Shown here one piece after another: positions 13,481 to 45,841 of a stretch of DNA of 64,000 nt. The stretch comes from Promethearchaeota archaeon. Lineage in GTDB: Archaea; Asgardarchaeota; Lokiarchaeia; Sigyniarchaeales; SOKP01. Under the pieces are notes generated by a model. It saw nothing but the letters and a program-made list of their open reading frames with translations. It searched no databases and had not been told where the DNA came from. A program made the translations under genes and the position numbers. How positions within the stretch are numbered: position 1 is the stretch's first letter; each line of letters begins with the position of its first letter. The stretch is from contig JBHLOI010000001.1 in assembly GCA_048940645.1 (NCBI GenBank), positions 103,636 through 167,635 of the forward strand, read 5' to 3'.

Positions 13481-14011
13481 TCATTCAATCAAAAAAATTG
13501 ATATGATATTTTGAAAATAAATTCCAAATCCTATTAAGAAAGTTAGTAAATTTGCTGTAATAACCATTGAAGTGGTCTTTTTTAACCCAGGGTATTCTAA
13601 ATATCTAGTATTAAAATCTTTAAATAAGTGATTTATTAGAATACATTCTACAGTAATTGGTATTATTTCTATTAAGAAATATATGATTAAAAAATAAAAT
13701 AAAGTTATGAATGTAAGAGATGTGACCATAATTTGAGTAATGGGAAAAGTGAACAAATTAACAATTAAAACCGTTTTATAAATTTTTGAATCATCAAATA
13801 TTTTTCCCCTTAAAAAAAGATACACTACCAGAAATTCAGCATTAAATGTAAAGAAAAACATAAGTGGTAATTCAAAAAAAAAGTAATATAATATACCTTT
13901 AGTATCGTAAAGAGATTCTAATACAATGGGATTAGCCTTTACATTTGGGATACTAAAAATGAAAAAAATTAGTAATAACCATACTATTGATGTATTCCTA
14001 GATTTCATCAA
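13481..14011 (-). CDS. Signal-peptide-bearing membrane protein (copy 2)
   Basis: VKA/NP signal-like N-terminus, ~4 TM helices, paralog of 16095..16631. Confidence 0.8.
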   Translation of the reverse strand: MMKSRNTSIVWLLLIFFIFSIPNVKANPIVLESLYDTKGILYYFFFELPLMFFFTFNAEFLVVYLFLRGKIFDDSKIYKTVLIVNLFTFPITQIMVTSLTFITLFYFLIIYFLIEIIPITVECILINHLFKDFNTRYLEYPGLKKTTSMVITANLLTFLIGFGIYFQNIISIFLIE

Positions 14012-14066
14012 GAACTAAATGGATAAGTAAATTTAAATATCTTTGGGATAACAATTAATCACTTTC

Positions 14067-15854
14067 TCATGATTGTTCCCAGTAACAGGGATAAAAGTAG
14101 GCAAGATCCATTACGTTGCTTGGGAATCCCCGTAAATGCTTATCCCATGCATCATAATTCTTCTCAACATAAAGCCACGCATGGGGTCGAAGGTCCTCAA
14201 CTAAATACCGTTGAATCTCATCATAGATCGCTTCTCTTGTAGGATCGGTTTCTGCAACGCCTTGTTCGAGTAAAGTTTGGAGATAGGGATCATTTACTTG
14301 TGCGGCATTATAGGTTGATATATTGGAGAATAAAGTATTGAGATAATTAGATGGATCATTTAAATCAGGTATCCACCACCAATAGTATAATTGTAAGGCA
14401 TCCCATCCGGCACTTTTTATCCTTAGATTGTATAATCTGTCTTTAAGATCATCCCACGGCATACCAGCATAACCAAGATAAATTCCAATGTGAGCTAAGT
14501 TATCTTCTAACGTAATAAATATTACATCACTGATGGTAACAGAACCTCCAACATTATAAGTTAAGTTTAAAGTTCGAAAATTTGCCGATTGCCATTGAGT
14601 TTCATGATTACCAGGGAAGGAGGGATCCCAACCTACACCAAACCCCATACTTTGCATTATTTCTCTTGCTTTAGTAATGTTGAATTTAGGATAATTAAAT
14701 GACCAGTTGGCATATAATACCCCCTCTGGAATGGGAGATTTTAATCTAGTAGTCCTAACTGGGTTTATAGTATATGTAGCAAACTCATTTTTTTGTATAC
14801 GATCAATTATAGAGCTATAATTGATAGCATAAGAGATTGCATTTCTCCAAGTTACATTAATCTGTTTGTTATTGAATCCTAAGTATTGGGTTATGGCTTT
14901 ATATTCAGCTTCATATAAAAGTACTGCCCCCTCAGCTTCCATTGCGGGGAAGTAGGAGGCGAAAGGATCTGCTATAATATCTATGGCACCAGAAAGTACT
15001 GCCATATTTCTGGCTTCATCATCTTGGATTTTGACATGTACTAAGACATCAAAACCAATTCTTGGTCGATGGTAATCTTCAAATGCGGTGAATCTCACTT
15101 CATAAGCTTCAAGCTTTTGTATTACCATAGGACCAGTTCCAACACAGATACCTGTATCAACTAAAGCAGGATTAATATAATCTAGTTGTGGTGTAGATGT
15201 AGGAGACATGATAACTGATGCAGGGAATGCTAATAGAGCGCGAAAGGGACCATAGGGCTGACTTAAAGTAAACCTCACTTGCCTTGGAGTAATTGCTTCA
15301 ACCTTTTGAATAATTGGAACTCCCTGGACATAATATAATGAATCGACAATAGTGGGGATGTTATAAAAACAGGTCTCAGGTAAAGGGCCCCAAGGATGAG
15401 GAGCTCCATTCCATGTAGTGTTCATCAAATAATGTAATCTCTGAAAACTCCATACAACAGTATCGGCATTAAAATCGGTGCCATCATGAAATTTTACCCC
15501 TTGTTTAAGGTTAAAGGTCAATTCTGTTCCTGTTGGATCGTAAGTACCCAAATCAGTTGCCAATAATGGATAAAGGGCCATTTCAGGGTGACTCAAATTA
15601 AGTGCAAGCAACCCTTCCCACGTCATAATGATAGCATCAAAGGAAGCATCATCCCAGGCGTATTGAGGGTCGATATCCTTAGCTATATTCATGCTCCCAA
15701 AATAAATTCGGGAATAAGGAGGTGGTGGTGGATAAGGATAATATCGATATTGATAAAGATAAATAAATGGTAAAACATTAAAAACAATAATATTTAGAAT
15801 AATTCCTATTGTAATCAAATTTTTTAATAAAGTATTTCCATCTTCTTCTCTCAT
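14067..15854 (-). CDS. ABC transporter family-5 (OppA/DppA-like) substrate-binding protein, N-terminal membrane anchor (copy 2)
   Basis: DPQ, P.LAT, F.LK.GVKFHDGTDFNAD.V..S, GTGP, R.AISYAIN, R.AIY.EIQ. Confidence 0.9.
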   Translation of the reverse strand: MREEDGNTLLKNLITIGIILNIIVFNVLPFIYLYQYRYYPYPPPPPYSRIYFGSMNIAKDIDPQYAWDDASFDAIIMTWEGLLALNLSHPEMALYPLLATDLGTYDPTGTELTFNLKQGVKFHDGTDFNADTVVWSFQRLHYLMNTTWNGAPHPWGPLPETCFYNIPTIVDSLYYVQGVPIIQKVEAITPRQVRFTLSQPYGPFRALLAFPASVIMSPTSTPQLDYINPALVDTGICVGTGPMVIQKLEAYEVRFTAFEDYHRPRIGFDVLVHVKIQDDEARNMAVLSGAIDIIADPFASYFPAMEAEGAVLLYEAEYKAITQYLGFNNKQINVTWRNAISYAINYSSIIDRIQKNEFATYTINPVRTTRLKSPIPEGVLYANWSFNYPKFNITKAREIMQSMGFGVGWDPSFPGNHETQWQSANFRTLNLTYNVGGSVTISDVIFITLEDNLAHIGIYLGYAGMPWDDLKDRLYNLRIKSAGWDALQLYYWWWIPDLNDPSNYLNTLFSNISTYNAAQVNDPYLQTLLEQGVAETDPTREAIYDEIQRYLVEDLRPHAWLYVEKNYDAWDKHLRGFPSNVMDLAYFYPCYWEQS

Positions 15855-16094
15855 AGCAGAGAACTTTTCTATACTTTTTTGTCTTAATATAATTGATAAT
15901 AAGTAAACTTAAAAATCTTTCATCTCAAACTTGAAATGGCTCATAATATAAGACCAATTTTAATAATTTTAATTTAATATTAGCATATAACAAATTTTAT
16001 GAGCTTAGATTATAATTAGTACAATTCTTTTACTAAATAGGTAATTTCATTAAAATAAAATATTTTTCTTCCATCTATGAGATAGTAGCACTCA

Positions 16095-16631
16095 TCAAAT
16101 CAAAATTTTTGATATAATGTTTGGAAAATAAACTCCAAACCCAATTAAGAAAGTTATTAGATTTGCTGTGATAACCATGGAGGTTGTTTTTTTTAATCCG
16201 GGGTATTCTACATATCTTTCATTGAAATTCATAAATAAATAATTTATAAGAAAACACTCTAAACTAATGGGTATAATTTCTATTAAGAAATAAATAATTA
16301 AAAAATAAAATGAAGTGACTAGTAGAAGAATTGAAGCAATAATTTGAGTAATGGGAAATGTAAAAAAATTTACTATAAAAATTAATTTATAAATTTTTGA
16401 CTCATTAAGAATTTTTTTTTTCTTCAAAAAAATATAAACAACTAAAAATTCAGCATTGAATGTAATGAAAAACATAAGCGGCATTTCAATAAAGAAGTAA
16501 TATAGACCACTAACAGTATCAAATAGAGGTATCCTTTCTACTGGAATGGGATTAGCTTTTACATTTAATATATTAAAAATGAAAAAAATTAGAAATATCC
16601 ATATAATTGATACATTCCTAGATTTCATCAA
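16095..16631 (-). CDS. Signal-peptide-bearing membrane protein (copy 1)
   Basis: Paralog of 13481..14011; VKANPIPV. Confidence 0.8.
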   Translation of the reverse strand: MMKSRNVSIIWIFLIFFIFNILNVKANPIPVERIPLFDTVSGLYYFFIEMPLMFFITFNAEFLVVYIFLKKKKILNESKIYKLIFIVNFFTFPITQIIASILLLVTSFYFLIIYFLIEIIPISLECFLINYLFMNFNERYVEYPGLKKTTSMVITANLITFLIGFGVYFPNIISKILI

Positions 16632-16686
16632 GAACTAAATGGATAAGTAAATTTAAATATTTTTGGAAATAGAATTAACCATTTTC

Positions 16687-18474
16687 TTAAGAATAATCCC
16701 AGTAACAGGGATAAAAGTAGGCACGATCCATTGCGTTGCTTGGGAATCCCCGTAAATCCTTATCCCACACGTCATAATTTTTATAAACATAAAGCCACGC
16801 ATGTGGTCTAAGTTCCTCAACTAAATACCGTTGAATCTCATCATAGATCGCTTCTCTTGTAGGATCGGTTTCTGCCATGCCTTGCTCGAGTAACTTTTGG
16901 AGATAGGGATCATTTACCTGTGCGGAATTAAAGGTTGATGTATTGTAGAACATAGGATTGAGATAATCAGATGGATCATTCAAATCCGGGATCCACGCCC
17001 TAGGGTATAATTGTAAGGCGTCCCATCCTGCACTTAATAATCTCTTATTGTATAATCTGTCCTTAAAATCATCCCATGCCATACCAGCATCACCAAGATA
17101 TATTCCAATGTAATCTAAATTATCTTCTAATATATCAAATATTACATCCCAGTATGTAACAGAACTTACGCTAAGAAATGTTAAGTTTAAAGTTCGGAAA
17201 TTTGCTGATGTCCATTGAATTTCATTACTGCCAGGGAACGTAACATCCCATCCTACACCAAAACCCATACTTTGCATTATTTTTCTTGCTTTAGTAATAT
17301 TAAACTCAGGATAATTAAATGACCAATTGGCATGAAGTACTCCTTCTGGAAGTGGTGATTTTAATCGTGTAGTCTTAGGGGGGAATATCGAATATATATC
17401 AAATTTTTTATTATCAATTATAGAGCTATAATTGATTGCATAAGAAATTGCATTTCTCCAAGTGATATTAATCTGTTTGTTATTAAATCCCAGATATTGG
17501 ACAAGATCTTTATGACCAGCCTCAATTAAAGAGATTTCCGCCTCAGCTTCCATATCATCTAGATATTTTGATGAGGGATCTACTATAATATCAACCGCAC
17601 CAGAAAGGACTGCCATGTTTCTGGCATCACCATCAATGATTTTGGCATGTACTAAAATGTCAAGATCTATTCTTGGTCGATGGTAATCTTCAAATGCGGT
17701 GAATCTTACCTCATAAGTTTCAAGTTTTAGTATTTCCATAGGACCAGTTCCAATACACGGTCCATATCCATAGGGACCTGAAACATCAACATTAGCTGGA
17801 TTAATATAATCTAATTGTGGGGTAGAGGTAGGGGACATGATGACAGACCCTGTAAATGCTAATAAAGCGCGAAAAGGACCATAGGGCTGACTTAAAGTAA
17901 ATTTTACTTGGGTTGGAGTAATGGCTTCAACATTTTGAATAATTGGATTACCTTCAATAAAATATAACGGATTAATAATAGTAGCGATGTTATAATAGAC
18001 TGTACTAGTTAGAAGGCCCCAAGGATGAGGAGCTCCATTCCAAGTAGTATTCATTAAATAATGTAATCTCATAAAACTCCATACGACCGCATCGGCATCA
18101 AAATAGGTACCATCGTGGAATCTAACCCCTGATTTAAGATTAAAGGTCAATTCTGTTCCTGTCACATCGTAAGTACCCAAATCAGTTGCCAATAATGGAT
18201 AAAGCGCCATTTCAGGGTGACTCCAGTTACTTGCAAGCAAACCCTCCCACACCATGATGATAGCATCAAAAGAAGCAGAATCCCAGGCATATTGAGGGTC
18301 AATATCTTCAGATATATACATACTCCCAAATTTTAAAATTTGCATTCCACGCCCAGTTTCGATTTTATATTGAGAAAAGTAAACAATTGGTAATATTCCA
18401 AATAAAAAAATATTAAGAATAATTCCTATTCTAATAAAATTTTTTAATAAAGTATTTCCATCTTTTTCTCTCAT
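16687..18474 (-). CDS. ABC transporter family-5 substrate-binding protein (copy 1)
   Basis: GVRFHDGT.FDADAV..S, GTGP; same length (595 aa) as 14067..15854 and collinear with it. Confidence 0.9.
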   Translation of the reverse strand: MREKDGNTLLKNFIRIGIILNIFLFGILPIVYFSQYKIETGRGMQILKFGSMYISEDIDPQYAWDSASFDAIIMVWEGLLASNWSHPEMALYPLLATDLGTYDVTGTELTFNLKSGVRFHDGTYFDADAVVWSFMRLHYLMNTTWNGAPHPWGLLTSTVYYNIATIINPLYFIEGNPIIQNVEAITPTQVKFTLSQPYGPFRALLAFTGSVIMSPTSTPQLDYINPANVDVSGPYGYGPCIGTGPMEILKLETYEVRFTAFEDYHRPRIDLDILVHAKIIDGDARNMAVLSGAVDIIVDPSSKYLDDMEAEAEISLIEAGHKDLVQYLGFNNKQINITWRNAISYAINYSSIIDNKKFDIYSIFPPKTTRLKSPLPEGVLHANWSFNYPEFNITKARKIMQSMGFGVGWDVTFPGSNEIQWTSANFRTLNLTFLSVSSVTYWDVIFDILEDNLDYIGIYLGDAGMAWDDFKDRLYNKRLLSAGWDALQLYPRAWIPDLNDPSDYLNPMFYNTSTFNSAQVNDPYLQKLLEQGMAETDPTREAIYDEIQRYLVEELRPHAWLYVYKNYDVWDKDLRGFPSNAMDRAYFYPCYWDYS

Positions 18475-18558
18475 AGTGGAGAACTTTTATAATTTTTTGT
18501 CTTGTTAAAATTGATAACAAGTAAACTTAAAAATATATCATCTAAATATTTATTAAAT

Positions 18559-19473
18559 TCATAATCGAAGACTCTTCTTTCCTTTCTTGACTTTAAAATT
18601 GACAATAAATATCATAGCTACACTGAGATTTCCGATCCCGAATAAGCCAAGGATAATTAAAAATAAATTATTTTCTGGAACTGAAGTATAGCCAATTCCT
18701 ACTAAATCATATTCAATAGTTTCATTATTCCATTCCCAACTAAAGCATTTATCATAATATTTACTAAGAAATGGTATTTTAGCATGATTTAGATCAGAAA
18801 TAATGCAATCTTCTTCATGATAACAATAATCTGGTAAATGACCATACACTTTAAATTCTACTTTTTCAGTTATATTGCCATTCCAGACCCTAGCCGTTCC
18901 TACATCATAAATAATTTCACAATATCCATAATCTTTTATAATATTTTTAACACTTATTTCTATAGATTCACACAAGAAACTAATTAACACAGAATCGTTT
19001 GCAGGAATAGTTATATTAAAGAGATAAAATATTCTACCATCATTAATATCTTCTATATATTTATTCCAGATTTCTGAAATATTACTTGCATAATTTATAA
19101 CAATTGCATCATAAATGAGAGCTGGGTTATTATCTATGGTTAGTGAATAATTATATATAGGAGCAGGGAGATTAAAAGGTATTGCTATAGAGACATTTAT
19201 TGTTTCATCTGGGTTGAATATCGTATAATTACTTTTAAAGTTCCAACTTAAATAATTCGGAAAGTTTAAAGTATTGATTTCAAATAAAACTTCAGCATTT
19301 ACTAATGAGAGAGTTAAATTTTCTTTCGGTAATATCCCACCTAATCCAGTACTCACTGGAGCGAAATTTGATTTAACAAAATCAGTATTATTTATTTGAT
19401 TTAGTTGGATCATTAATAAAATAAGAATAAATAAGTAAATTTTCCTTTTATTCAACTTCTGTCTCATATTCAA
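18559..19473 (-). CDS. Secreted, C-terminally anchored DUF4424-like protein (copy 2)
   Basis: Signal peptide, NYT..N, YDVGTARVWNGNI motif, C-terminal TM with basic tail, many NxT/S sequons. Confidence 0.6.
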   Translation of the reverse strand: MNMRQKLNKRKIYLFILILLMIQLNQINNTDFVKSNFAPVSTGLGGILPKENLTLSLVNAEVLFEINTLNFPNYLSWNFKSNYTIFNPDETINVSIAIPFNLPAPIYNYSLTIDNNPALIYDAIVINYASNISEIWNKYIEDINDGRIFYLFNITIPANDSVLISFLCESIEISVKNIIKDYGYCEIIYDVGTARVWNGNITEKVEFKVYGHLPDYCYHEEDCIISDLNHAKIPFLSKYYDKCFSWEWNNETIEYDLVGIGYTSVPENNLFLIILGLFGIGNLSVAMIFIVNFKVKKGKKSLRL

Positions 19474-19521
19474 GATACAAAAAAGTCAAAATAACTTTTA
19501 TTTTTTTCCTACAAATGTAAT

Positions 19522-20457
19522 TTATTTATTTTTCCTGTTACTAATTTTAAAGCTTATTATAATTACCATTGCTGCAATGACATTTACTAATCCGAAGAAA
19601 CTAAAACTAACCAAAACTAATTTACTTTCTGGTATAGAAGTATAGACAATTCCAACTAAATTATATTCAATTATTTCATTATTCCATTCCCAACTATAAC
19701 ATTTACTACCATATTTATCAAGAAATTTATCAATAAATGGTATTTTAACTTGATTTAAATCAGAGATAAGGCAATCTTCTTCATAATAGCAGTAATCTGG
19801 TAAGACACCATATACTTTAAATTCTACTTTTTCAGTTATATTGCCATTCCAGACCCTTGCAGTTCCCACATCATAAATAATTTCGCAAGATCCAAAATTT
19901 TCAATCATATATTTAACACTACTTTCTTTAGAATCAAATGAGAAATTGATTAAAACAGAATCGTTCGCAGGAATAGTTACATTAAAAATGTAAAACTTTC
20001 TACCATCTTCAATATTGTCTAGATATTTACTCCAGATTTCTGAAATGTTTGGATTTACCTGTCCTTGAGAAATCGTATTATAGATGAGTGCTGGATTATT
20101 ATCTATGGTTAATGAATAATTGTATATGGAAGTACCCCGCCCTAAAGGCATTCCTATAGTGATATTTATCGTCTCATCTGGGTTAAATATCGTATAATTA
20201 CTTTTACATTTCCACCTTAGACCGAAAAAGTCCCGGTTGTTTATCGGGAAATATCGAGCATTTATTTCAAATAAAACTTCAGCATTAAGTAATGAAAGAG
20301 ATGAATTTTCTTTAGGTAATATCCCACATATCGTGCTCACTGGACTAGGATTTGCTTTTACAAAATCTGTAGTATTTATTTGATTGAGCTGGATCGTCAA
20401 TAAAATAAGAATGAATAAATAAATTTTCCTTTTATTCAACTTCTGTCTCATATTCAA
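19522..20457 (-). CDS. Secreted, C-terminally anchored DUF4424-like protein (copy 1)
   Basis: Paralog of 18559..19473; identical 5' region (19441-19489 = 20425-20473). Confidence 0.6.
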   Translation of the reverse strand: MNMRQKLNKRKIYLFILILLTIQLNQINTTDFVKANPSPVSTICGILPKENSSLSLLNAEVLFEINARYFPINNRDFFGLRWKCKSNYTIFNPDETINITIGMPLGRGTSIYNYSLTIDNNPALIYNTISQGQVNPNISEIWSKYLDNIEDGRKFYIFNVTIPANDSVLINFSFDSKESSVKYMIENFGSCEIIYDVGTARVWNGNITEKVEFKVYGVLPDYCYYEEDCLISDLNQVKIPFIDKFLDKYGSKCYSWEWNNEIIEYNLVGIVYTSIPESKLVLVSFSFFGLVNVIAAMVIIISFKISNRKNK

Positions 20458-22009: not shown

Positions 22010-22071
22010 TGGAAATACCATGGGTAGAATATTTCTAAGTGTAATTAAAATATAGAGGTAATAATAAAAAA

Positions 22072-23358
22072 ATGAATGACTTAAGGAAAAAGCTAAAAAT
22101 TTCAGATAAGGCGTTAAAGGCAGTAAATGATTTTCTTTTAGATGGAAGTAATCCACTACTTAACAACTTATTAGAATTGGTAGATAACTATGGTGGTGTT
22201 GAGGAAATTAACAAGAAGGCTAATGAGGCTGGAAAAATTGAAAATTTAATGCAAAAATTAGAAAAGAAGAATCCTGATTACATAAAGGATCTTGAATGGT
22301 TAATAGATCAGAGAGAAAATGATGCTTTTATCAGCATACCTGAATATCGAAAGAAAATTCTTGGAGAGAAAGCATCAGAAGTAAAATTCAAGGAGAATTT
22401 TGCCGTAACTTTAGAGTTATCCGCATGTCAATATTTTCCATTTCTTATTGATATTGCTAAAGATGCCATTGATACTCAACAATTAGTTCCTGGAAGGATT
22501 ATTCGGGTTAGAAATATGAAGGAACAGGAGGAAGATGGAGATTTAATAGCAATGGCAGCAGCAATGCAAATAATTGGTTCTACGTGGGTTGAGACATTAG
22601 ATACAAAAGGAACCGCTCCAGGGCCAGATGGGCTTCCTGTAAATGTACATTTAGGAGGACCTGAAACCATAACCGGATATTTTGGGGGTGTGGGGCAACC
22701 TAATGATTTTGCTTTGAAATGGATCGATGAATTCCTTTATTACTATACTAATTATGGAATAAAGCAAGCGCTTAATGTAAATCCCGGTACTGTTTTACTT
22801 GGATATTTCATCTATAAATTGGGAATTAATAACGAATTTAAAATTAGTGTTTATATGGGTAATGACAACCCATATGCTTGTCTTTGGACTCTATTAACAG
22901 CAAAATTATTTGCACGTGAAGATGGTTCAAGTCCTCTCATTGGCTTTAATCTCGCTAACTCAGTTAATAATGAAACTATTGAACTATCGGCATATATTCG
23001 TAAAAATTTTGATTTTGAAGATGTGATTAGATTAGAACATCATATAACTGAAACTTGGAAGAGTATAGTAAGGCAACCTTATGATCGAAGAGAGGAATTA
23101 TTAGAATTAGCGGCAAAAGTTAAGAATGTAAGTGCTAAACATGAAGGAGGCGATATAGAAGTTGAAAAAAGCAGGGAACACCCTACTGATATTCTTGAAT
23201 ATTTTATGCCTAAAGAAGAATTGATAAAAGCAGGATTATGGGATTTTCTACGAATAAATCATCTAGATAGATATAGAGCAGTGAATCATACTGCTAAGGC
23301 TCTTACCGAAAAAGGTCTTAGCTTTATTGCTGCGAGTAATTTACATAAATCGATTTAA
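22072..23358 (+). CDS. Conserved hypothetical enzyme-like protein
   Basis: 428-aa soluble ORF with GAGG SD and motif-like segments LDTKGT, HLGGPETITGYFGG, LEHH, KHEGG; family not recognised. Confidence 0.8.
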   Translation: MNDLRKKLKISDKALKAVNDFLLDGSNPLLNNLLELVDNYGGVEEINKKANEAGKIENLMQKLEKKNPDYIKDLEWLIDQRENDAFISIPEYRKKILGEKASEVKFKENFAVTLELSACQYFPFLIDIAKDAIDTQQLVPGRIIRVRNMKEQEEDGDLIAMAAAMQIIGSTWVETLDTKGTAPGPDGLPVNVHLGGPETITGYFGGVGQPNDFALKWIDEFLYYYTNYGIKQALNVNPGTVLLGYFIYKLGINNEFKISVYMGNDNPYACLWTLLTAKLFAREDGSSPLIGFNLANSVNNETIELSAYIRKNFDFEDVIRLEHHITETWKSIVRQPYDRREELLELAAKVKNVSAKHEGGDIEVEKSREHPTDILEYFMPKEELIKAGLWDFLRINHLDRYRAVNHTAKALTEKGLSFIAASNLHKSI

Positions 23359-23378
23359 AATTAAGAGGTTAATATAAA

Positions 23379-24866
23379 ATGGGAATGTTTGATTTTCGTC
23401 CAACTGGAGTCATGCCAGCTATGGTTACTCCTTTCAATAAAGATGAATCAATTAACGAGGAAATGTTAAGGAATTTAGTTAATCATCTAATTGAACAAGG
23501 GGTCACAGGTTTAGTGCCTTCTGGAACAACAGGGGAATTTGTAAATATGACTTTTGAAGAAAGATTAAAAGTGATAGAGATTGTTGTGGATGAAACTAAT
23601 GGTAGGGTTCCTGTTATTGCAGGTACAGGAGAAACTGGCACTAAATTAGTAATTGATGCAACTAAATCGGCAACAGATATTGGAGCAGATGCAGTATTAA
23701 TTGTTACTCCTTATTACTTAAAACCTAAAGCTAAAGGTCTTTACGATCATTATTTTACAATAGCAGAAAAAACAGAAATTCCTATTGTTCTTTATAATAT
23801 TCCTGTTTGTACTGGAGTAGAGTTACCATGGACAGTGGTTGAAGACCTTGTAGAAATTGAGAATATCGTTGGAATTAAAGATTCTAGTGGAGATTATAAA
23901 TATTTTTCTGCCCTATTAGAAAAAGTAAGTGATATAATTTCTGTCATGATTGGATGGGATGAAAATGTCCTTGGTGCTTTAGCGGGAGGTGCCGCTGGAT
24001 GTATTTTAGGTTCTGCAAATGTATTTCCTAAAATTTGGCTTGAAATTTATAACCATATAAAAAGCAATCGTTTAGAAGAAGCACAAGTACTTCAAAAGCG
24101 AGTCCAGAAGTTAGCCAGACTTTTAATAAATTCAGGAGCATTAGGTGTTAAATCTTGTTTAAATATGATGAAGATTCCAGTAGGTAAAACCCGACAACCA
24201 CTTGTTTTAGGTGATGCTCTCTCTTATGAAATAAAAGATGAGTTGCGAGTCGAGCTTGAAAAGTTAGATTTAATTCAAAAGACAGAATTACAGTTTGAAT
24301 TTGGAGAAAAACCACTTACAAGCCGATTTTATAGTGTTGGAATTACACCCAAGAAAATTACAGATTTTGATCTAAAAGTAGGGGAATCTCTTGTGGGCAA
24401 TCGTGTTGAACTTGCACATATTGATCTTCTAATTGGTAGAAAAGATGGCCCTGTTGGGATTGCATATGCTCAAGCGTTAACTAATCCAGAAGAAGGACGG
24501 GAAGGACTTCAAGTCATACTTGAACCGAATATGCAAGTAAAACCACCTACAATTATGATTCCTACAGTTCGTCCAATTTCACTTCGTCATGCAAGTTTAA
24601 CATATGGACCTGCTCAAGCGGCAATAGCTAAAGCAATAATGCAATGCGTCGAAGATGGAATTCTTCCGAAAGAACTAGTAGATGAAATCGTAATAATTGT
24701 AAATGTGTTTGTCCATCCAAGTGCTAGTGCAAGAAAAAGAATATTTATTAACAATTATAAAGCAACCCGTAATGCGATTCGAAAATCAATGGAAGGTTTA
24801 CCGTCTATAGATGATGGTATCGAGAACGCAGAAAGTGCGCGACACCCATTTAGAAATGACCCATAA
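23379..24866 (+). CDS. dapA/fae: DapA/NAL-family class I aldolase fused to formaldehyde-activating enzyme (Fae)
   Basis: N-terminal GTTGE, PYY, YNIP, Schiff-base GIKDSSGD; C-terminal VGESLVG..ELAHIDLLIG, KP.T...TV, GPAQAAIAKA, NYKAT..AI. Confidence 0.9.
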   Translation: MGMFDFRPTGVMPAMVTPFNKDESINEEMLRNLVNHLIEQGVTGLVPSGTTGEFVNMTFEERLKVIEIVVDETNGRVPVIAGTGETGTKLVIDATKSATDIGADAVLIVTPYYLKPKAKGLYDHYFTIAEKTEIPIVLYNIPVCTGVELPWTVVEDLVEIENIVGIKDSSGDYKYFSALLEKVSDIISVMIGWDENVLGALAGGAAGCILGSANVFPKIWLEIYNHIKSNRLEEAQVLQKRVQKLARLLINSGALGVKSCLNMMKIPVGKTRQPLVLGDALSYEIKDELRVELEKLDLIQKTELQFEFGEKPLTSRFYSVGITPKKITDFDLKVGESLVGNRVELAHIDLLIGRKDGPVGIAYAQALTNPEEGREGLQVILEPNMQVKPPTIMIPTVRPISLRHASLTYGPAQAAIAKAIMQCVEDGILPKELVDEIVIIVNVFVHPSASARKRIFINNYKATRNAIRKSMEGLPSIDDGIENAESARHPFRNDP

Positions 24867-24888
24867 TTAGGAGGAGATTATTATAGAA

Positions 24889-26007
24889 TTGAAATATCTT
24901 TTTAGCCCAGGTAAAATTGGTAATATAAGCATTAAAAATCGTCTGGTTCGTTCAGCGACTTGGGAATCAAGAGCAACTGAAGATGGGTACGTGACTGATT
25001 CGCTTATCGAATTCTATGGAAATTTAGCGAAGGGAAGTATCGGATTAATAATAACTGGATATATTGCCGTAGATAAAATAGGAGCTCAAACTACTCGTAT
25101 GACAAGAATTTATGATGATTCATATATACCCGGACAAAAAAAATTAGTAAGTTCCATTCACGAGCATTCAGATGTTAAGGTAGCTGCTCAAATAGGGCAT
25201 ACAGGTAATAACGTCATTAATCGTAAATTAGAAACCGTTGGTCCATCACCAATTAGAGACCCTCTAACTAAAAAAGTCTGTCGAGAATTGAAAAAGGAAG
25301 AAATTGAAGAAATAATAGGGAAATTTGCTCAGGCAGCTTTCAGAGCTTATGAGTGTGGTTATGACATGATACAATTGCACGCAGGGCATGCTTACTTATT
25401 GAGTGACTTTATCTCTCCATTTACAAATAGGCGAAATGATCAATATGGGGGTTCTACTCTTAACCGATTAAAAATTGTTATTGATATTTACAATCAGATC
25501 AGAGATAATTTAGGAAAAAGTTTTCCAATAACAATCAAACTAATTACTCAAGATTTTCTAGGGAAGGGTAAAGGTCTAGATTTAGAAGAGGGAGTAGATA
25601 TCGCTAAACATTTAGTTGAAATAGGTTTTGATGCTATTGAACCCACCTCTGGACGTACAAGTTTAAGGATAACCAATAATAAGTCATTTCCAAGCGTAAA
25701 TTTTAGTTCACCTGATGATGGAAATTACTATTTACCAAACGCTATAGCACTCAAACCAATAATGAAAGATTGTCCATTGATCCTTATGGGCGGTATAAGA
25801 AACCCAATATCAGCAGATAATTTATTGAAAGAGAAAATTGCAGATTTTATATCACTGAGTAGACCTTTTATATATGAACCTGATTTAGCTAACCGATGGA
25901 AGAGCGGAGATCTTTCCCCTTCATTATGTACTAATTGCAATGCTTGTTTTGGAATTGGTGAGAGAAGGGAAGTATATTGTGTGATAAAGAAAAAATTAGA
26001 AAAATAA
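24889..26007 (+). CDS. NADH:flavin oxidoreductase (old yellow enzyme family)
   Basis: KNRLVRSAT, QIGHTG, QLHAGHAYLL..FISP.TN.R.D.YGGS..NR, SRP, C-terminal CTNCNAC. Confidence 0.92.
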   Translation: MKYLFSPGKIGNISIKNRLVRSATWESRATEDGYVTDSLIEFYGNLAKGSIGLIITGYIAVDKIGAQTTRMTRIYDDSYIPGQKKLVSSIHEHSDVKVAAQIGHTGNNVINRKLETVGPSPIRDPLTKKVCRELKKEEIEEIIGKFAQAAFRAYECGYDMIQLHAGHAYLLSDFISPFTNRRNDQYGGSTLNRLKIVIDIYNQIRDNLGKSFPITIKLITQDFLGKGKGLDLEEGVDIAKHLVEIGFDAIEPTSGRTSLRITNNKSFPSVNFSSPDDGNYYLPNAIALKPIMKDCPLILMGGIRNPISADNLLKEKIADFISLSRPFIYEPDLANRWKSGDLSPSLCTNCNACFGIGERREVYCVIKKKLEK

Positions 26008-31736: not shown

Positions 31737-32984
31737 ATGCCAAAAGGGCAGAGTGAAAAAATTAAGTTAATTTCTAAGTTTTTAGATAAAACCAAAGTAA
31801 TAAATTTCGATAAATTAGATTCAATCGAAGATGTTATAAATTTTCCTATTTCTAATTTTAACTTTTTAAACGATGCTGATGTAGACTTAATAAGTAGATT
31901 ATTTAAAATTAATAGTATAGGCCAATTTGCTTCTTTGGACCCTGAAAAACCTTTCGAAGTTTTATATAAGGATAATAAAACTAAGAAAAAGATTGAGCAT
32001 ATATTGCAAACTGATTTAGAAATCGAAGATAAGGTAAAAAAAGCAGTTACTATAAGTAAAGTTATTTATAAAATAAAAGAAGAGTCAATCTCATACTTAA
32101 AAAAAGAGCAAAAAGTTATCGTTGTTGGGTTAGCAAATGCTGGTAAGACAACAATACTTAAGAAATTTGGTGGTCAAATTGGAATAAAAGATTTAGCAAA
32201 ATTAAATCCAACAAAAGGAGTTGAGCGTCAGGAAATTATTACTCCTGATTTAGTACTAATAATATGGGATTTTGGTGGCCAACAAGAATATAGAGAAATT
32301 TATCTTCAAGATCCTCAGAGATATTTTTTAAAAGTTGATTTGATAATTTACGTTATTGATCTTCAAGATCCAGAAAAATTTGATGAAAGTATTAAATATT
32401 TCGAAAAAATTATTGAGAATGTCGAAAAACTTGAAGAAAAACCTTACATATTGGTTTTTATACATAAATATGATCCTGACATAAAAGATAATCCAGAAGT
32501 ATTACTTAATATAGAACTTGTAAAAGATTTAATTAAGAATATTTTTAAAAATAGAAAAAAATTTGATTATGAGATATATCTAAGTTCTATCTATTCCTTG
32601 TTAGCAAAAGAACCAAAGTTTTCAAGATATCTTAAAGAAACTATGGAAAAAACTGCTACCTTATCAGATTATAAATTAGAAGGAATGGCATCAATTTTAG
32701 AATCAACATTGAATGGAATTATTCGATTATCAGAAGTTGTAATGGATCAATATAATGAATTAAATAATAGAATAAGATTAATTGAGGGTGAATATGCAAT
32801 TACAAATGGATTAACGTCTTCATTACCCTCTCCGGAATACTCATCACCCACAGTAACTTCTCAAAAAACAAGCACTTCATCAAAATTAGTTTCAAGTAAG
32901 GAGGCTAGAAAGGCCAAGGCGGCAGTTCTTGATGAATTAAAAGAATTGATAGAGAAGAAAAATAAAAGAACAAAGAAGAAGTAA
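31737..32984 (+). CDS. Arf/Rag-like small GTPase with N-terminal extension and C-terminal coiled coil (eukaryotic signature protein)
   Basis: G1 GLANAGKTT, G2 PTKG, G3 WDFGGQ, G4 HKYD, G5 SSI. Confidence 0.9.
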   Translation: MPKGQSEKIKLISKFLDKTKVINFDKLDSIEDVINFPISNFNFLNDADVDLISRLFKINSIGQFASLDPEKPFEVLYKDNKTKKKIEHILQTDLEIEDKVKKAVTISKVIYKIKEESISYLKKEQKVIVVGLANAGKTTILKKFGGQIGIKDLAKLNPTKGVERQEIITPDLVLIIWDFGGQQEYREIYLQDPQRYFLKVDLIIYVIDLQDPEKFDESIKYFEKIIENVEKLEEKPYILVFIHKYDPDIKDNPEVLLNIELVKDLIKNIFKNRKKFDYEIYLSSIYSLLAKEPKFSRYLKETMEKTATLSDYKLEGMASILESTLNGIIRLSEVVMDQYNELNNRIRLIEGEYAITNGLTSSLPSPEYSSPTVTSQKTSTSSKLVSSKEARKAKAAVLDELKELIEKKNKRTKKK

Positions 32985-33196: not shown

Positions 33197-34405
33197 GTGA
33201 ATAACATTTCAGGGGATATAGTTAAAAAGATAAATGATATGGCTAATTATTGTTATAATTGTAATCGATGTGTTAATGTATGTCCACTTTCTCACATAGA
33301 TGTTTTTTATCCCCAAAAATTAATTGTAGATTTACTTTTTTCCCCAATAAATGAAGTTTTAGAAAAACATAATATATGGGATTGTCTTACTTGTGGTCTT
33401 TGTTCTAATTATTGTCCCATGACTCAAGAGAAAGCTGGTGTTAGATTTCCAGAATTGATATTAGAATTGAGAAAAATAGCTATCCATAACCAAAGTCAAA
33501 TGGATAGAATCATTCAGTGTGAAACTCACGATGAAATATTTCCACTTATCTCAAAAATCATGTCGGATGATAAGTTGCATCCAAATAAATTAGAATTTTT
33601 GGAAAAATCATCTTTAAAAACGACAGATTTTGGTGAAATTGCATATTATGTTGGTTGTTTACCTCTTATGGACACAATTTTTTATAAATCAGATATCAAT
33701 TATATAAGCACACCAAAAACTATAATTGGTTTATTAAACGAGGCAGGTATAGTACCAGTTGTATTAAATGAAAAGTGTTGCGGGCATGATGTTTTATGGG
33801 GTAAAGGGGATAATAATACGTTTAAAAAGCTTGCCGAATATAATGTTAAACTTTACAGAGATGCGGGTGTTAAAACAATTATCTTAGGATGTGCTGAAGG
33901 ATATAGAACCTGGAAATTTGATTATCCTAAAATCGTAAAAGATTTCAATTTTAAGATTATGCATTTTTCTGAGTTTTTTCTTAAGGAAGAAATCCTTGAA
34001 AATGTTAGATTTCCACAAGAAACTAATATTAAAGTTACCTATCACGATGCATGTCGATTAGGACGTTTGGGAGGAAAATTATATGATGCTCCGAGGGAAT
34101 TACTTAAGAAAATTCCAGGAGTTGAATTAATTGAAATGGAGAATATTAAAGATGATGCGAACTGCTGTGGAGTTTCGGCTTTTATGGGATGTAATGAATC
34201 AACTCGTACTTTTAGACAAAATCGTATAAATGAAGCAATAGAAACAGGAGCAGAATATTTAATCGTACCTTGTCCTAAGTGTTTAACACATTTCGATTGC
34301 TATCTTAATGAACCCTCCTTAGAAGAAGATCATAAAAATCTAAAAAATAAAATCAAAGTTAAAGATTTGGCAAATTTTATTGGAGAACTACTTTTCCTCG
34401 TTTAA
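33197..34405 (+). CDS. hdrD: HdrD/GlpC-like Fe-S oxidoreductase (2x[4Fe-4S] + two CCG domains)
   Basis: CYNCNRCVNVCP, CLTCGLCSNYCP, EKCCG, YHDACRLGR, CCG, CPKC. Confidence 0.85.
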   Translation: MNNISGDIVKKINDMANYCYNCNRCVNVCPLSHIDVFYPQKLIVDLLFSPINEVLEKHNIWDCLTCGLCSNYCPMTQEKAGVRFPELILELRKIAIHNQSQMDRIIQCETHDEIFPLISKIMSDDKLHPNKLEFLEKSSLKTTDFGEIAYYVGCLPLMDTIFYKSDINYISTPKTIIGLLNEAGIVPVVLNEKCCGHDVLWGKGDNNTFKKLAEYNVKLYRDAGVKTIILGCAEGYRTWKFDYPKIVKDFNFKIMHFSEFFLKEEILENVRFPQETNIKVTYHDACRLGRLGGKLYDAPRELLKKIPGVELIEMENIKDDANCCGVSAFMGCNESTRTFRQNRINEAIETGAEYLIVPCPKCLTHFDCYLNEPSLEEDHKNLKNKIKVKDLANFIGELLFLV

Positions 34406-34489
34406 GTAAGGCAAAGTGTAATAAAAATGATAAATAATCTTTTTTAAAATGTATGAATATAAGAAATTTTCAATAATGGAGGATTAAAA

Positions 34490-37400
34490 TTGAGTGAAAA
34501 GAATAAAGTTGGAGCTGTAATGATCGTTGGAGCAGGAATAGGAGGTTGTCAAGCAGCATTAGATTTAGCAGATGCTGGTCTCAAAGTTTATCTTGTTGAC
34601 AAAGAACCATCCATTGGAGGGGTAATGGCCCAATTAGATAAAACATTCCCAACAAATGACTGTTCTATGTGTATTTTAGCTCCAAAACTCGTAGCTGTAG
34701 ATAGGCATCCGGATATTGAACTGATTACATACGCAGACATCATAAATCTAGAGGGTGAAGCTGGTAATTTTAATGCAACAATTAATAAAAGAACAAGATA
34801 TATCTATGAAAATAAATGCACGGGTTGCGGAGAATGCATTCAAGAGTGCCCTGTTGAAGTTCCTGATGAATTCAATCAGAAATTGAATAATCGAAAAGCA
34901 ATATATCTTCAATTCCCTCAGGCAGTACCATTCAAAGTCCAAATAGACAAACGAGGAATTCCTCCTTGTGTTGATGCCTGCCCTGCTCATGTAAATGCCC
35001 AAGGTTATGTTGCTTTAATCTCCAAAAAAAGTTATCAAGAAGCCTTGAACTTAATTAGAGAGAGATGTCCGCTTCCATCTGTTATCGGACGGATTTGTCC
35101 TCATTTTTGTGAAGAAGTATGTAATAGAGCGGAAGTAGATGACTCTATTAATATTTGTGGTCTAAAGAGGTTTGTAGCCGATTATGTTATGGATAATCTT
35201 AAAGAAGAAATTACATTCTTAGAAGATAAAAAGGAAGAAAAAGTAGCTATTGTTGGTTCAGGTCCAGCGGGACTTACTGTTGCATATCACCTAGCAAAAC
35301 TCGGGTATTCCGTAACTATTTTTGAAAAAGAACCTGTCGCAGGTGGAATGCTTAGACTTGGTATTCCTGATTATAGATTACCCCCAGAAATTTTAGAAAG
35401 AGATATTGAATATATTAAGAAATTAGGTGTTGAAATAAAAACTAATACACCAATAGGTCCTGATTTAACTTTAGAAGATTTAAAAAATCAAGGTTATAAA
35501 GCTATTTTTATCGCCATAGGTCTTCATAATAGTCGTAAAATGGATTTTGAATGCGAAAATATTGATGATGTAATATACGGTGTTGATTTTCTGAAAGAAG
35601 TGAATTTATCAAGAAATGTACCTAATCTTAAAGATAAAGTTGTAGGAATAGTTGGTGGGGGAGATGTTGCAATGGATGCTGCAAGGTCATCCATACGATT
35701 AGGTGCTAAAAAAGTAATAATCATCTATCGAAGATCTGAACAAGAAATGCCTGCTTCAAGGGAAGAAATAGAAAGAGCAAGAGAAGAGGGTATTGAATTC
35801 AAATTTCTAACCGTACCTACTAAAGATGCCAGCGGTAAAAAAGTAAAGCTTGCTGAAATTGAATGCGTACAAATGAAACTTGGTAAGCCTGATGAATCTG
35901 GAAGGCGAAGACCTATCGCAATTGAAGGTTCTGAATTTAAGATGAAGATAGATACTCTAATAATTTCTGTAGGACAGGAACCTGATTGTTCTTTAGTGGA
36001 ATCTGCTTCTCAGAATAAATTAAATATTAATAAATGGGGCTATATTGAAGCAGATAAAACGACATTTAAAACTAATATTTCTGGTGTTTTTGCTGGAGGA
36101 GAAATCACTACTGGTGCTGGCTCTGCTATAGAAGCGATAGCAACAGGGAATAAAGCCGCTATAGTAATAGAAAAATACTTAAAGGGAGAAGAAATTTCCG
36201 AACTAAAAGAAACCATACCAGACTATAAAGTAGAGGATGTAGTTACTATTGCTGATATTGAAGATGTTGATAGTGTAGCATGTCAAGATAGAGGAGAGTT
36301 CAGTATATGTTTACCTGAAGAACGTATATACAATTTTAATGAAGTTGCAAGCACTATGGATGAAGATTCTTCTATTGAAGAAGCTCAACGTTGTCTTAAT
36401 TGTGGATCTTGCTGTGAGTGTTTCGAATGTGTGAGAACTTGTCAAGCAAATGCTGTTGATCATAACTTAACTGATGAAACTATCTCTATAAATATTGGAG
36501 CTGTAATATTAGCTCTTGGATCTGATGAATATGAACCAAAAATAGGAAATATTTATGGATATGGTGAATATCCAAATGTTATATCAAGTATAGAATTCGA
36601 ACGTATTCTCAATGCTTCGGGTCCATTTAAGGGAGAGGTTATTCGTCCTTCAGATAATATGCATCCGGAAAAAATAGCTTTTTTGCAATGTGTTGGTTCT
36701 CGAGATAAAAAAATAAATCATGAATACTGTTCTTCAGTGTGTTGCATGTATACTACAAAAGAAGCTGTTATTGCTAAAGAACATTTGAATACACTTGAGC
36801 CCACTATTTTTAGTATGGACATACGGGCATACGGAAAAGATTTTGACAAATACATTGAACGAGCTAAAAGTGATTACGGGATAAGATATATTAGAAGTAG
36901 GATTTCAACTATTAAGGAAATTACCGAATCAAATGATTTAAAAATTAGGTTCGAAACTGATGAGGGAGAAATAAAAGAAGAAATATTTAATATGGTTGTT
37001 TTGTCTGTGGGATTACAACCTAACTCAAACGCTATAGCGTTAGCAAAAAAATTAAATGTTGAATTGAATGAGTATAACTTTTGTAAAACATCTACTTTTA
37101 ATCCAATTGAGACTTCAAGACCAGGTATTTATGTATGTGGGACTTTTAAAGAACCTAAAGATATTCCAGAAACTGTTGTTGAAGCTAGTGCAGCTGCTGG
37201 AGCTGTGAATGTGCTTCTTTCTGATGTTAGAAATACATTGGTGGCTGAAAAGAAATATTATGATGAAATTGATGTCAGTGGGGAGCCACCTCGAATTGGA
37301 GTCTTCGTTTGTCATTGTGGAATTAATATTGGAGGCGTTGTTGACGTTCCTGAAGTGGTTGAATATGCTAGTAAATTACCAGATGTAGTATATACTGAAA

Positions 37401-39436
37401 GAAATTTATACACTTGCTCAGCAGATACTCAAACGATTATTAAAGAAAAGATAAAGGAGTATAACTTAAATAGAGTAATCGTTGCTTCTTGTACACCTAG
37501 AACGCATGAACCATTATTTCAAGCAACAATAAGAGAAGCAGGGTTAAACAAATATCTTTTTGATTTGGCAAATATTCGAGATCAATGTTCCTGGGTACAT
37601 ATGCATGAACCAGAAAAAGCTACAGAGAAAGCTAAGGATTTAGTTAGGATGTCTGTTGCAAAAGCAAGAAATTTAGTTCCATTACAGGAACAAAGAGTGG
37701 AAGTAGTTAATAAAGGATTGGTAATAGGTGGGGGTGTAGCTGGAATGACAGCTGCTTTAAACTTAGCAGATCAGGGATATACAACATATTTAATTGAGAA
37801 GGGTGATAAATTAGGAGGTTTTGCTAATCAGATTTATCAAACTTTAGAAAACAATGATGTCCAAATGTTAATTACTAATTTAGTGGAAAGGGTTAATAAC
37901 CATGAGTTTATTAATGTTTTTCTCGAAGCAAATATTAATTCTGTTACAGGTTATCTAGGTAATTTTACCACAGAAATAATCCTTGAAGGAGGAAATGAAG
38001 AAACGAAATTAAATCATGGAATAATTATTGTAGCAACAGGAACAGAGGAATATCTGCCTAAAGATAATGAATTCCTATATAATAAGGATGAAAGAATTAT
38101 AACTCAATCAAAACTCGAAGAAATTCTCTTTATGGATGAAAATAAAATAAAGGAATTGAAATCAATTGTAATGATCCAATGTATAGGCTCTAGAAACGAC
38201 GAACATCCTTATTGCAGCAGGATGTGTTGTGCAGAAGCAATAAAAAATGCATTAAAAGCAAAAGAAATTAATCCAGATATTAATATTACAATTTTATTCC
38301 GTGATATTAGAACTTATGGTTTTAAGGAGAAATATTATAATTTAGCAAGAGAAAAAGGTATTCTTTTCATTAGATTTGATGAAAAGCAACCCCCCGAAGT
38401 TATAAATAAAGATAATGAATTACAAGTTATATTAGACAAGTCAGATTTGGGAGAAATTAAAATTAATACTGATATGGCAGTTTTAAGCGCAGGAATTGAA
38501 GCTCCTGAGGGAAATTTTGAACTAGCTAAATTATTAAAAGTTCCTCTTAATGAGGACAATTTCTTTTTGGAAGCTCATGTTAAATTAAGACCTTCTGATT
38601 TCGCAACAGATGGAATCTTTTTATGCGGAACTGCACGAGGACCTGCAAATATCAGTGAAAGTATAGCGCAAGCGAATTCTGCAGCAGCTAGAGCAATGAC
38701 AATATTATCAAAAGAGATTTTAGAGACTGAAGGTGTAACTTCCTATGTTAATGAAGATAAATGTATAGGTTGTGGTCAATGTGCTGAAATTTGTCCCTAT
38801 AATGCTATTGAACTAGTTGAGACTACTAAACAAATGGGATTATATAGTAATGATATAAAGAAGGCTCACGTAATAAAGGCTCTTTGTAAAGGATGTGGAA
38901 CCTGTTTCGCAGAATGCCCTGTTTCTGCTATATCTATGAGCCATTTTGGAAATGAACAGATAAAACCAATGATTACTGAAGCAGTTAAATCAGAGGAAAA
39001 AGCTTGGGAACCAAGAATAGTCGCATTTCTCTGTAATTGGTGCTCTTATGCCGGTGCTGATCTGGCAGGTGTAAGTAGATATCAATATCCTCCAAATCTA
39101 AGAATTATTAGAGTCATGTGCTCAGGAGGTATGTCTAAGAGTTATATTTTAAAGGCGTTTTTGGATGGAGCGGATGGTGTATTTATAGCAGGGTGTCACC
39201 TTGGAGATTGTCATTATATAAGTGGGAATGAAAATGCCTATCTTCGCTTGGAGAACCTTCAGAAACTGTTAAAAATGGTTGGAATTGAAGAAGAAAGGAT
39301 TCAGATTCATCAGATTTCCGCCAGTGAGGGGAAACAATTCTCAGAACACATATCAGAATTTACAGAAATAATCAAAAAATTGGGAGAATCGAAAATACCA
39401 AGTAAAGTGAGTAAGGCAAAAATTGGATCTAACTAA
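34490..39436 (+). CDS. hdrA: Large HdrA-like flavoprotein fusion (HdrA + GltD/NfnB-like NAD(P)H module + second HdrA + MvhD)
   Basis: GAGIGG..LDKTFPTNDC; PCVDACP, GRICPHFCE, GSGPAG, GGGDVAMD/YRRS; two QC.GSR...CS..CC; GVFVCHCG; terminal AFLCNWCSYAGADLAG. Confidence 0.9.
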   Translation: MSEKNKVGAVMIVGAGIGGCQAALDLADAGLKVYLVDKEPSIGGVMAQLDKTFPTNDCSMCILAPKLVAVDRHPDIELITYADIINLEGEAGNFNATINKRTRYIYENKCTGCGECIQECPVEVPDEFNQKLNNRKAIYLQFPQAVPFKVQIDKRGIPPCVDACPAHVNAQGYVALISKKSYQEALNLIRERCPLPSVIGRICPHFCEEVCNRAEVDDSINICGLKRFVADYVMDNLKEEITFLEDKKEEKVAIVGSGPAGLTVAYHLAKLGYSVTIFEKEPVAGGMLRLGIPDYRLPPEILERDIEYIKKLGVEIKTNTPIGPDLTLEDLKNQGYKAIFIAIGLHNSRKMDFECENIDDVIYGVDFLKEVNLSRNVPNLKDKVVGIVGGGDVAMDAARSSIRLGAKKVIIIYRRSEQEMPASREEIERAREEGIEFKFLTVPTKDASGKKVKLAEIECVQMKLGKPDESGRRRPIAIEGSEFKMKIDTLIISVGQEPDCSLVESASQNKLNINKWGYIEADKTTFKTNISGVFAGGEITTGAGSAIEAIATGNKAAIVIEKYLKGEEISELKETIPDYKVEDVVTIADIEDVDSVACQDRGEFSICLPEERIYNFNEVASTMDEDSSIEEAQRCLNCGSCCECFECVRTCQANAVDHNLTDETISINIGAVILALGSDEYEPKIGNIYGYGEYPNVISSIEFERILNASGPFKGEVIRPSDNMHPEKIAFLQCVGSRDKKINHEYCSSVCCMYTTKEAVIAKEHLNTLEPTIFSMDIRAYGKDFDKYIERAKSDYGIRYIRSRISTIKEITESNDLKIRFETDEGEIKEEIFNMVVLSVGLQPNSNAIALAKKLNVELNEYNFCKTSTFNPIETSRPGIYVCGTFKEPKDIPETVVEASAAAGAVNVLLSDVRNTLVAEKKYYDEIDVSGEPPRIGVFVCHCGINIGGVVDVPEVVEYASKLPDVVYTERNLYTCSADTQTIIKEKIKEYNLNRVIVASCTPRTHEPLFQATIREAGLNKYLFDLANIRDQCSWVHMHEPEKATEKAKDLVRMSVAKARNLVPLQEQRVEVVNKGLVIGGGVAGMTAALNLADQGYTTYLIEKGDKLGGFANQIYQTLENNDVQMLITNLVERVNNHEFINVFLEANINSVTGYLGNFTTEIILEGGNEETKLNHGIIIVATGTEEYLPKDNEFLYNKDERIITQSKLEEILFMDENKIKELKSIVMIQCIGSRNDEHPYCSRMCCAEAIKNALKAKEINPDINITILFRDIRTYGFKEKYYNLAREKGILFIRFDEKQPPEVINKDNELQVILDKSDLGEIKINTDMAVLSAGIEAPEGNFELAKLLKVPLNEDNFFLEAHVKLRPSDFATDGIFLCGTARGPANISESIAQANSAAARAMTILSKEILETEGVTSYVNEDKCIGCGQCAEICPYNAIELVETTKQMGLYSNDIKKAHVIKALCKGCGTCFAECPVSAISMSHFGNEQIKPMITEAVKSEEKAWEPRIVAFLCNWCSYAGADLAGVSRYQYPPNLRIIRVMCSGGMSKSYILKAFLDGADGVFIAGCHLGDCHYISGNENAYLRLENLQKLLKMVGIEEERIQIHQISASEGKQFSEHISEFTEIIKKLGESKIPSKVSKAKIGSN

Positions 39437-39471
39437 TTTTTTTAAAAAAAGGATTAATAAATTATTTTAGT

Positions 39472-45840: not shown

Positions 45841-45841
45841 A

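Follow-up and report, generated by a model that had tools for sequence, protein, structure and literature searches.

A conserved two-gene module of Asgard archaea as candidate core of a 4-hydroxy-2-oxobutanoate pathway between methionine, pyruvate and the methylene pool

A DapA-like aldolase that ends in a formaldehyde-activating Fae domain and lies directly behind the gene of an uncharacterised enzyme raises the question which carbon compound the two proteins handle together. We address this question for a 64,000-nt stretch of DNA from a sediment Promethearchaeota archaeon (GCA_048940645.1, contig JBHLOI010000001.1, 103,636-167,635 of the forward strand), here called the window, in which positions are counted from its first letter. 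The first gene (22072..23358, forward strand) encodes U428, a TIM-barrel enzyme of 428 amino acids (aa) from an undescribed family, and the second (23379..24866, forward strand) a 495-aa fusion protein, which carries the database label 4-hydroxy-tetrahydrodipicolinate synthase. We propose, with a probability of roughly 0.45, that both belong to a natural and widespread pathway based on 4-hydroxy-2-oxobutanoate (HOB). It would join methionine, with its methanethiol, to pyruvate and to the methylene pool of the Wood-Ljungdahl pathway and would be run by the U428 family (at least 8000 members) together with three partner sets that can replace one another; its carriers would be Asgard archaea, Bathyarchaeia and anaerobic bacteria.

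Which genes form the unit? A preliminary description of the locus had claimed three co-oriented, tightly spaced genes with Shine-Dalgarno sites, the third (24889..26007, forward strand) encoding a 372-aa flavin oxidoreductase of the old yellow enzyme (OYE) family. This layout was confirmed: 20 nt separate U428 from the fusion and 22 nt the fusion from the OYE gene, and Shine-Dalgarno-like motifs precede all three genes on the forward strand (GAGGT at 22055..22059 and at 23365..23369, AGGAGG at 24869..24874). For the linkage of these genes we sampled 80 archaeal loci and a further set of 88 other U428 loci, and surveyed the gene content of 131 Asgard genomes. U428 and the fusion occur together in 59 of the 80 archaeal loci, 55 times directly co-oriented, and the pair is also present in Bathyarchaeia; the nearest homologs stem from Promethearchaeia (Lokiarchaeia) genomes. 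The OYE gene, which the preliminary description had counted as a member of the unit, adjoins the pair in only six of the 80 loci, all from close relatives, and other relatives carry unrelated genes at the same site. The conserved unit consists of two genes, and the OYE gene is only a lineage-restricted passenger. Its product has a PF00724 domain with the His/His/Tyr motif and a C-terminal Cys cluster and scores below every named subfamily cut-off. A three-gene route, in which U428 would dehydrate HOB and the OYE protein would reduce the enone to 2-oxobutanoate, is coherent as chemistry and agrees with the tight spacing and the ribosome sites, but given the rarity of the OYE gene and the unrelated inserts at its site we consider it highly improbable.

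The association extends to the level of whole genomes. Among fusion-bearing Asgard genomes, 60 of 62 have U428 or its putative remote homolog, the U32-like protein described below, and where U428 or its homolog is present and no fusion was detected, homoserine dehydrogenase (Hom) is found in 21 of 26 genomes, mostly inside the U428 operon. UDP-glucose dehydrogenase, Bcp, nitroreductase and DUF255 neighbours were rejected as partners, as their synteny is restricted to one family. The two-gene module is real, conserved and unstudied; a literature search found no paper describing it or a fusion of Fae with dihydrodipicolinate synthase (DHDPS).

What does the fusion do? The earlier claim of a complete DapA-family aldolase joined to a Fae domain with the AHID His motif holds. 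Residues 8-293 (23400..24257, forward strand) match the full class I DHDPS-family barrel (E = 2e-76) and residues 334-491 (24375..24851, forward strand) the full Fae domain (E = 5e-54; TIGR03126, 183 bits against a cut-off of 118); in the predicted structure both domains are folded, and the linker (residues 305-329) is of low confidence. The aldolase domain keeps T50, T51, Y113, Y139, K167, G192 and D194, corresponding to T44, T45, Y107, Y133, K161, G186 and D188 of E. coli DapA, so that the pyruvate residues, i.e. the Schiff-base Lys161 and the Thr44/Tyr107/Tyr133 equivalents, are all retained. The substrate residues of DapA are changed: R138 corresponds to C144, D187 to W193, and N248 is lost (Gly or Ala instead); an Arg138 equivalent was found in none of 36 fusion homologs. 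We take Arg138 and Asn248 to be the residues that bind aspartate semialdehyde. Because both are lost and a separate canonical dapA, with Arg138, is clustered with dapB and lysA on contig C106 of the same genome, the fusion is, judged from its residues, not a lysine-pathway enzyme. We give a negligible probability to the view that it is an ordinary DHDPS whose Fae tail is incidental, even though it passes TIGR00674 (248 bits, cut-off 206) and its best PDB matches are DHDPS.

In the Fae domain, H347, D349 and Q413 (His22, Asp24 and Gln88 of Fae) occur in all 27 single fusions; we assume a catalytic role for His22 and pterin-site roles for the Fae residues. In tandem fusions, complementary Fae residues are lost from the two copies. 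Such tandem fusions also lie directly 3' of U428 on four high-GC metagenome contigs (L112, L118, L124 and L131), like the Thorarchaeia pairs. The fusion can be regarded as a variant on the idea of Fae-Hps: it matches the Fae-Hps model NF009833 with its Fae part only (147 bits, cut-off 274), the Hps domain is not matched, and the genome encodes a separate Fae-Hps. The tetrahydromethanopterin (H4MPT) branch postulated for the host is present, with mch and mtd detected elsewhere in the genome and FwdB/FwdC-like genes at 4063-6246 of the window, the FwdC-like match lying under the Pfam cut-off. The preliminary description had suggested an aldolase acting on a 4-hydroxy-2-oxo acid. The reaction that fits best is the interconversion of HOB with pyruvate and methylene-H4MPT, which the fusion probably catalyses; homoserine as the source of the acid is possible, but would leave U428 without a role, and the data favour a 2-oxobutanoate with another substituent at C4, most likely methionine's keto acid. 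In one genome without Fae, a divergent stand-alone DapA-like gene lies directly 5' of U428 (L198:6085-8417).

HOB as the substrate of the fusion is independently supported by the PanB-type and Hom partners that U428 has elsewhere. A PanB-like gene stands beside U428 in 46 of the 88 further loci, mostly directly upstream, and folD, fhs or Wood-Ljungdahl genes flank some of these pairs. Compared with PanB of E. coli, six Asgard PanBs and five from the PDB, 38 of 40 U428-linked PanBs fall into a clade of their own. The catalytic Asp45, Ser46, Asp84, Lys112, Glu114, His136 and Glu181 are kept in 40/40, and V179L, I202L, I212L and V214I occur in 38-40 of the 40, canonical PanB having Val179, Ile202, Ile/Val212 and Val214. 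These four positions presumably line the pocket for the methyl groups of ketoisovalerate. The bulkier residues suggest that the linked PanBs use a smaller substrate, e.g. pyruvate. Pantoate metabolism would be another explanation for such neighbours, the fusion being an H4MPT version of PanB on ketopantoate and U428 acting on ketopantoate as well. U428-linked genes indeed pass panB cut-offs, and four fusion carriers, including the window genome, have PPS but no panB; yet canonical panB is found in 103 of the 131 Asgard genomes, including most fusion carriers, and neither the bulkier pocket nor the partner set of Hom and AOR, which is sensible only for HOB, agrees with this proposal, which we therefore judge to be quite unlikely.

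This last partner set occurs in Heimdall- and Hodarchaeal families without any Fae, where U428 is accompanied by an aminotransferase, Hom, AOR and sometimes PatB; Hom and AOR also lie with U428 in metagenome locus L100. Asd was found in 0/15 and 1/7 genomes of the families with Hom and AOR, so that Hom probably oxidises homoserine towards aspartate. An oxidative route from homoserine to aspartate is known, namely the canavanine route (PMC9533460). The three partner sets, i.e. pyruvate aldolase-Fae, small-pocket PanB and transaminase-Hom, thus appear to converge on HOB, the one metabolite which all of them can handle.

Alternatively, the fusion might replace Hom and supply homoserine for threonine, as 13 fusion-bearing genomes of the host's family are devoid of Hom, which is present in eight of the nine without fusion. 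However, the hom-linked thrC is also gone in 12 of these 13 relatives, which indicates that the whole branch was lost and not bypassed. ThrC-like paralogs do exist, one of them near U428 in Thorarchaeia; the window genome, on the other hand, has adjacent hom and thrC on contig C5 besides the fusion, and U428 would again be left without a role. We consider this replacement very improbable.

Which step could U428 contribute? Its homologs number at least 8000 at 90% clustering, and 92 representatives with E < 1e-30 at 50% clustering, including Anaerolineae and Bacillota, describe a large but tight family. In line with the earlier description as an uncharacterised enzyme, single-sequence and profile searches of Pfam, NCBIfam and PDB sequences gave no match. 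Structure prediction yielded a confident model (pLDDT 93.7) with a TIM barrel (about residues 107-423) and N-terminal helices, but no outstanding solved relative: the structure search returned a flat list of generic TIM barrels, from a best Z of 12.0 (rmsd 3.3, 204 aligned) to 10.2 at rank 50. E115, S117, K257, S259, N293, E322, H324, K356, H357 and E358 are conserved. U428 has no nucleotide-binding domain, which points to a lyase, hydratase or aldolase step, and we propose a lyase/hydratase acting at C4 of 2-oxobutanoates. Distant U428 and U32-like relatives occur in sugar-acid clusters, in part after sugar-acid dehydratases, and in dmpFG clusters; these contexts fit 4-hydroxy-2-oxo acid chemistry generally and are compatible with an aldolase as well as a lyase. 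U428 itself could be the pyruvate aldolase that splits HOB into pyruvate and free formaldehyde; the pair would then serve to shuttle or detoxify formaldehyde. The relatives that follow sugar-acid dehydratases would suit this, and in Foldseek class II FBP aldolases and transaldolases rank first, but their TM of about 0.33 indicates a TIM barrel only, and the activity would be redundant with the aldolase and Fae of the fusion and with the separate Fae-Hps. We regard such a shuttle as improbable.

In lineages without U428, a U32-like protein of about 315 aa adjoins the fusion. The best shape matches of U428 in the Atlas are clusters labelled 'U32 peptidase', and the two proteins never co-occur in the 131 Asgard genomes (U428 in 72, U32-like in 14). 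Their folds align with a TM of 0.55 by query (0.55/0.7), and strand-end motifs including two lysines are shared over 225 columns, with an hhalign E of 0.0013 at a probability of only 19%. U428 may thus be a remote relative of the uncharacterised U32-like protein, labelled 'U32 family peptidase', which takes its place beside the fusion; U428 is 110 aa longer, and neither keeps the Cys residues of Fe-S U32 hydroxylases. An assignment of U428 to these hydroxylases (UbiU/V, RlhA, TrhP) was rejected, since no conserved Cys was found among 70 full-length homologs and PF01136, like all of Pfam, gave no match; Atlas feature matches of U428 (Rep_trans, 0.89-0.91) were judged to be chance. Viral scans found U428 at one locus and the U32-like protein at none. 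U428 homologs without partner genes lie on two virus-labelled contigs (L084:8001-9158 and L177:243-1424), a Mycobacterium plasmid carries a U32-like gene fragment directly 5' of dmpF-dmpG (4-hydroxy-2-oxovalerate aldolase; L211:9121-11542), and in many Thorarchaeia a protein with Zn-ribbon, ThrC-like pyridoxal phosphate (PLP) and PadR parts is encoded divergently from U428 (L197:4715-6193).

Where would HOB come from? In 11 loci (e.g. L163:3040-4905), U428 has a dehydrogenase of the ELFV family with CBS domains as a neighbour. An ortholog (57%) is encoded in the window genome (G000:C80:8896-10761), and in the host's family the enzyme is present in exactly the four Loki genera with the pair. 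The linked enzymes keep the catalytic lysines, but K89 is replaced by M, I or L in 11/11, and A163 by G and S380 by A in all copies that cover these positions. The enzyme on contig C80, like that of L163, deviates from the Lys89/Ala163/Ser380 of glutamate dehydrogenase by K89M, A163G and S380A, while the other paralogs of this genome keep the Lys. Mutations at positions 89, 163 and 380 of glutamate dehydrogenase gave methionine, norleucine or norvaline dehydrogenase activity (PMC5708825; Wang 2001 as cited in PMC12181280). The ELFV-CBS enzyme is, by its pocket residues, a candidate for a natural methionine dehydrogenase. Methionine's keto acid carries SMe at C4 where HOB has OH and is otherwise identical; as this position is beta to the ketone, elimination and addition can exchange the substituent. 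Near U428, genes for PatB C-S lyase, Cys/Met PLP lyases, Lrp and MetE-like proteins are found repeatedly. The window genome further contains a cluster of MttB-like, corrinoid, MttB-like and atypical Cys/Met PLP lyase genes (G000:C15:1177-6331), and the pairing of MttB and lyase is also found 5' of the module in L163.

Based on the residue changes of the dehydrogenase, the chemistry at C4 and the recurring sulfur-amino-acid genes, we tentatively consider U428 and the fusion as the core of a methionine-fermenting route, although for its full catabolic version the doubts prevail. Consistent with it, the pair is retained in most Thorarchaeia, where Asd, Hom and HcyBio are missing. We infer every reaction, and its direction, from the observed gene content, linkage, folds and residue changes. 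In this route, the dehydrogenase on C80 or an aminotransferase would convert methionine to 4-methylthio-2-oxobutanoate. U428 would hold the 2-oxo group, either as a Schiff base at K257 or K356 or through a metal on E322/H324/H357/E358, eliminate methanethiol and hydrate the 2-oxo-3-butenoate intermediate to HOB. The DapA-like domain would then split HOB into pyruvate and formaldehyde, and the Fae domain would fix the latter as methylene-H4MPT for the Wood-Ljungdahl methyl branch; in bacteria, the PanB paralog and tetrahydrofolate (THF) would take over this step, and in several Heimdall- and Hodarchaeal families HOB would proceed via homoserine and aspartate semialdehyde to aspartate.

The same hub would be served if U428 removed another C4 substituent, as from homocysteine, S-methylmethionine, an O4-ether such as a betaine-lipid head group or an amine, or if the dehydrogenase used homoserine directly. 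All evidence for HOB holds equally for this variant, the MttB-like methyltransferases and the atypical PLP lyase mentioned above would find a place in it, and better leaving groups would ease the thermodynamics. Still, such compounds are rarer than methionine for peptide fermenters, and the changes in the dehydrogenase match a Met-type pocket, which renders the variant rather unlikely.

The pathway might also run in reverse, pyruvate and methylene-H4MPT yielding HOB and U428 adding H2S or methanethiol to form homocysteine or methionine without ATP or acyl activation. Thiol addition is downhill, and many carriers are devoid of HcyBio and Asd. The vicinity of U428 contains genes resembling MetE, BHMT and AcsE as well as RACo genes, which in one case (L132) lie between panB and U428; the MetE-like neighbour matched no family and was identified by eye, and core MetE (PF01717 methionine synthase) was not found in the window genome nor in the searched Thorarchaeia or f5 genomes. 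HcyBio and Asd, however, are also present in the window genome and in 27/29 of its family; the host has two HcyBio (PF01837) paralogs (G000:C54:54424-55437 and C117:22442-23632), as does most of its family, in which no anti-correlation between U428 and HcyBio was seen. Moreover, Hom and AOR without Asd would require AOR to reduce aspartate. Hence, biosynthesis as the function of the module appears unlikely to us.

With regard to direction, Hom and AOR without Asd, the folD and fhs neighbours, the retention of the module in lineages poor in amino-acid synthesis and its redundancy with HcyBio and Asd in the host would favour catabolism, whereas the MetE-like genes in some operons and the energetics of thiol addition would favour synthesis. 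Several points weigh against the proposed methionine-HOB pathway. Replacement of sulfur by oxygen at C4 is expected to cost roughly 15-30 kJ/mol and demands low methanethiol. U428 is without a close solved relative, its chemistry rests on gene context, and the distant relatives in sugar-acid clusters imply that the family has other substrates. Lys71 of Fae is replaced by T396 in the window fusion and by Thr in 25/27 single fusions, and the pocket of the ELFV enzyme would also fit homoserine or norvaline. Methionine gamma-lyase-like lyases, none above cut-off, occur in many of the same genomes. Finally, the surveyed genomes are related to each other, and the counts are not independent.

Apart from the module, the window contains two facing Hdr/Mvh-type clusters at 33197-46444, with an HdrD-like gene, a 1648-aa HdrA-MvhD-like fusion and an HdrCBA-MvhD-Flx-like run. 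Tandem duplications at 13481-20457 comprise two 595-aa solute-binding-like genes, each with a membrane gene of about 177 aa, and two secreted paralogs of about 305 aa. An Arf/Rag-like GTPase with a long N-terminal extension, a eukaryote-like protein of Asgard archaea, is encoded at 31737-32984.

If the proposal is true, an enzyme family that is among the larger ones without a name in anaerobes would receive a function, and systematic mislabels, of the fusion as DapA and of the paralog as PanB, would be corrected. The H4MPT branch of amino-acid-fermenting Asgard archaea would gain an extra feed, and methanethiol in sediments would acquire a candidate source, or sink. The pathway itself would be new, provided that the methionine link is correct, and HOB, termed non-native in a review and handled as a compound of synthetic methylotrophy, would become a natural intermediate, with dedicated enzymes available for C1 engineering; the PanB version of the route needs only THF as carrier.

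Among known systems, archaeal Fae-Hps (NF009833; H4MPT hydro-lyase/3-hexulose-6-phosphate synthase) likewise fuses an aldol enzyme to Fae and passes formaldehyde to or from H4MPT, but in the window fusion Fae is C-terminal and its partner a Schiff-base pyruvate aldolase of the DapA family. PanB (ketopantoate hydroxymethyltransferase), a paralog of which replaces the fusion beside U428 in bacteria, likewise transfers methylene between a pterin and the C3 position of 2-oxo acids; the fusion has an unrelated fold, H4MPT instead of THF, and pyruvate instead of ketoisovalerate as predicted substrate. The engineered homoserine cycle, composed of a HOB aldolase (RhmA/YfaU) and a HOB aminotransferase, connects pyruvate and formaldehyde via HOB with homoserine as well (PMC8879981, PMC7918591), but is a laboratory design on promiscuous enzymes, whereas the U428-fusion module is dedicated, conserved and probably catabolic. 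In the canavanine gamma-lyase route (PMC9533460), as proposed for the clusters of U428 with aminotransferase, Hom and AOR, water replaces a C4 substituent and the C4 unit is oxidised to aspartate via Hom and an aldehyde-oxidising enzyme; that lyase depends on PLP and takes the amino acid as substrate, while the proposed substrate of U428, a TIM barrel, is the keto acid. The methionine gamma-lyase route, finally, also degrades methionine to methanethiol, NH3 and a C4 keto acid, yet it yields 2-oxobutanoate and then propionate, whereas the route proposed here would yield pyruvate, a C1 unit and NAD(P)H.

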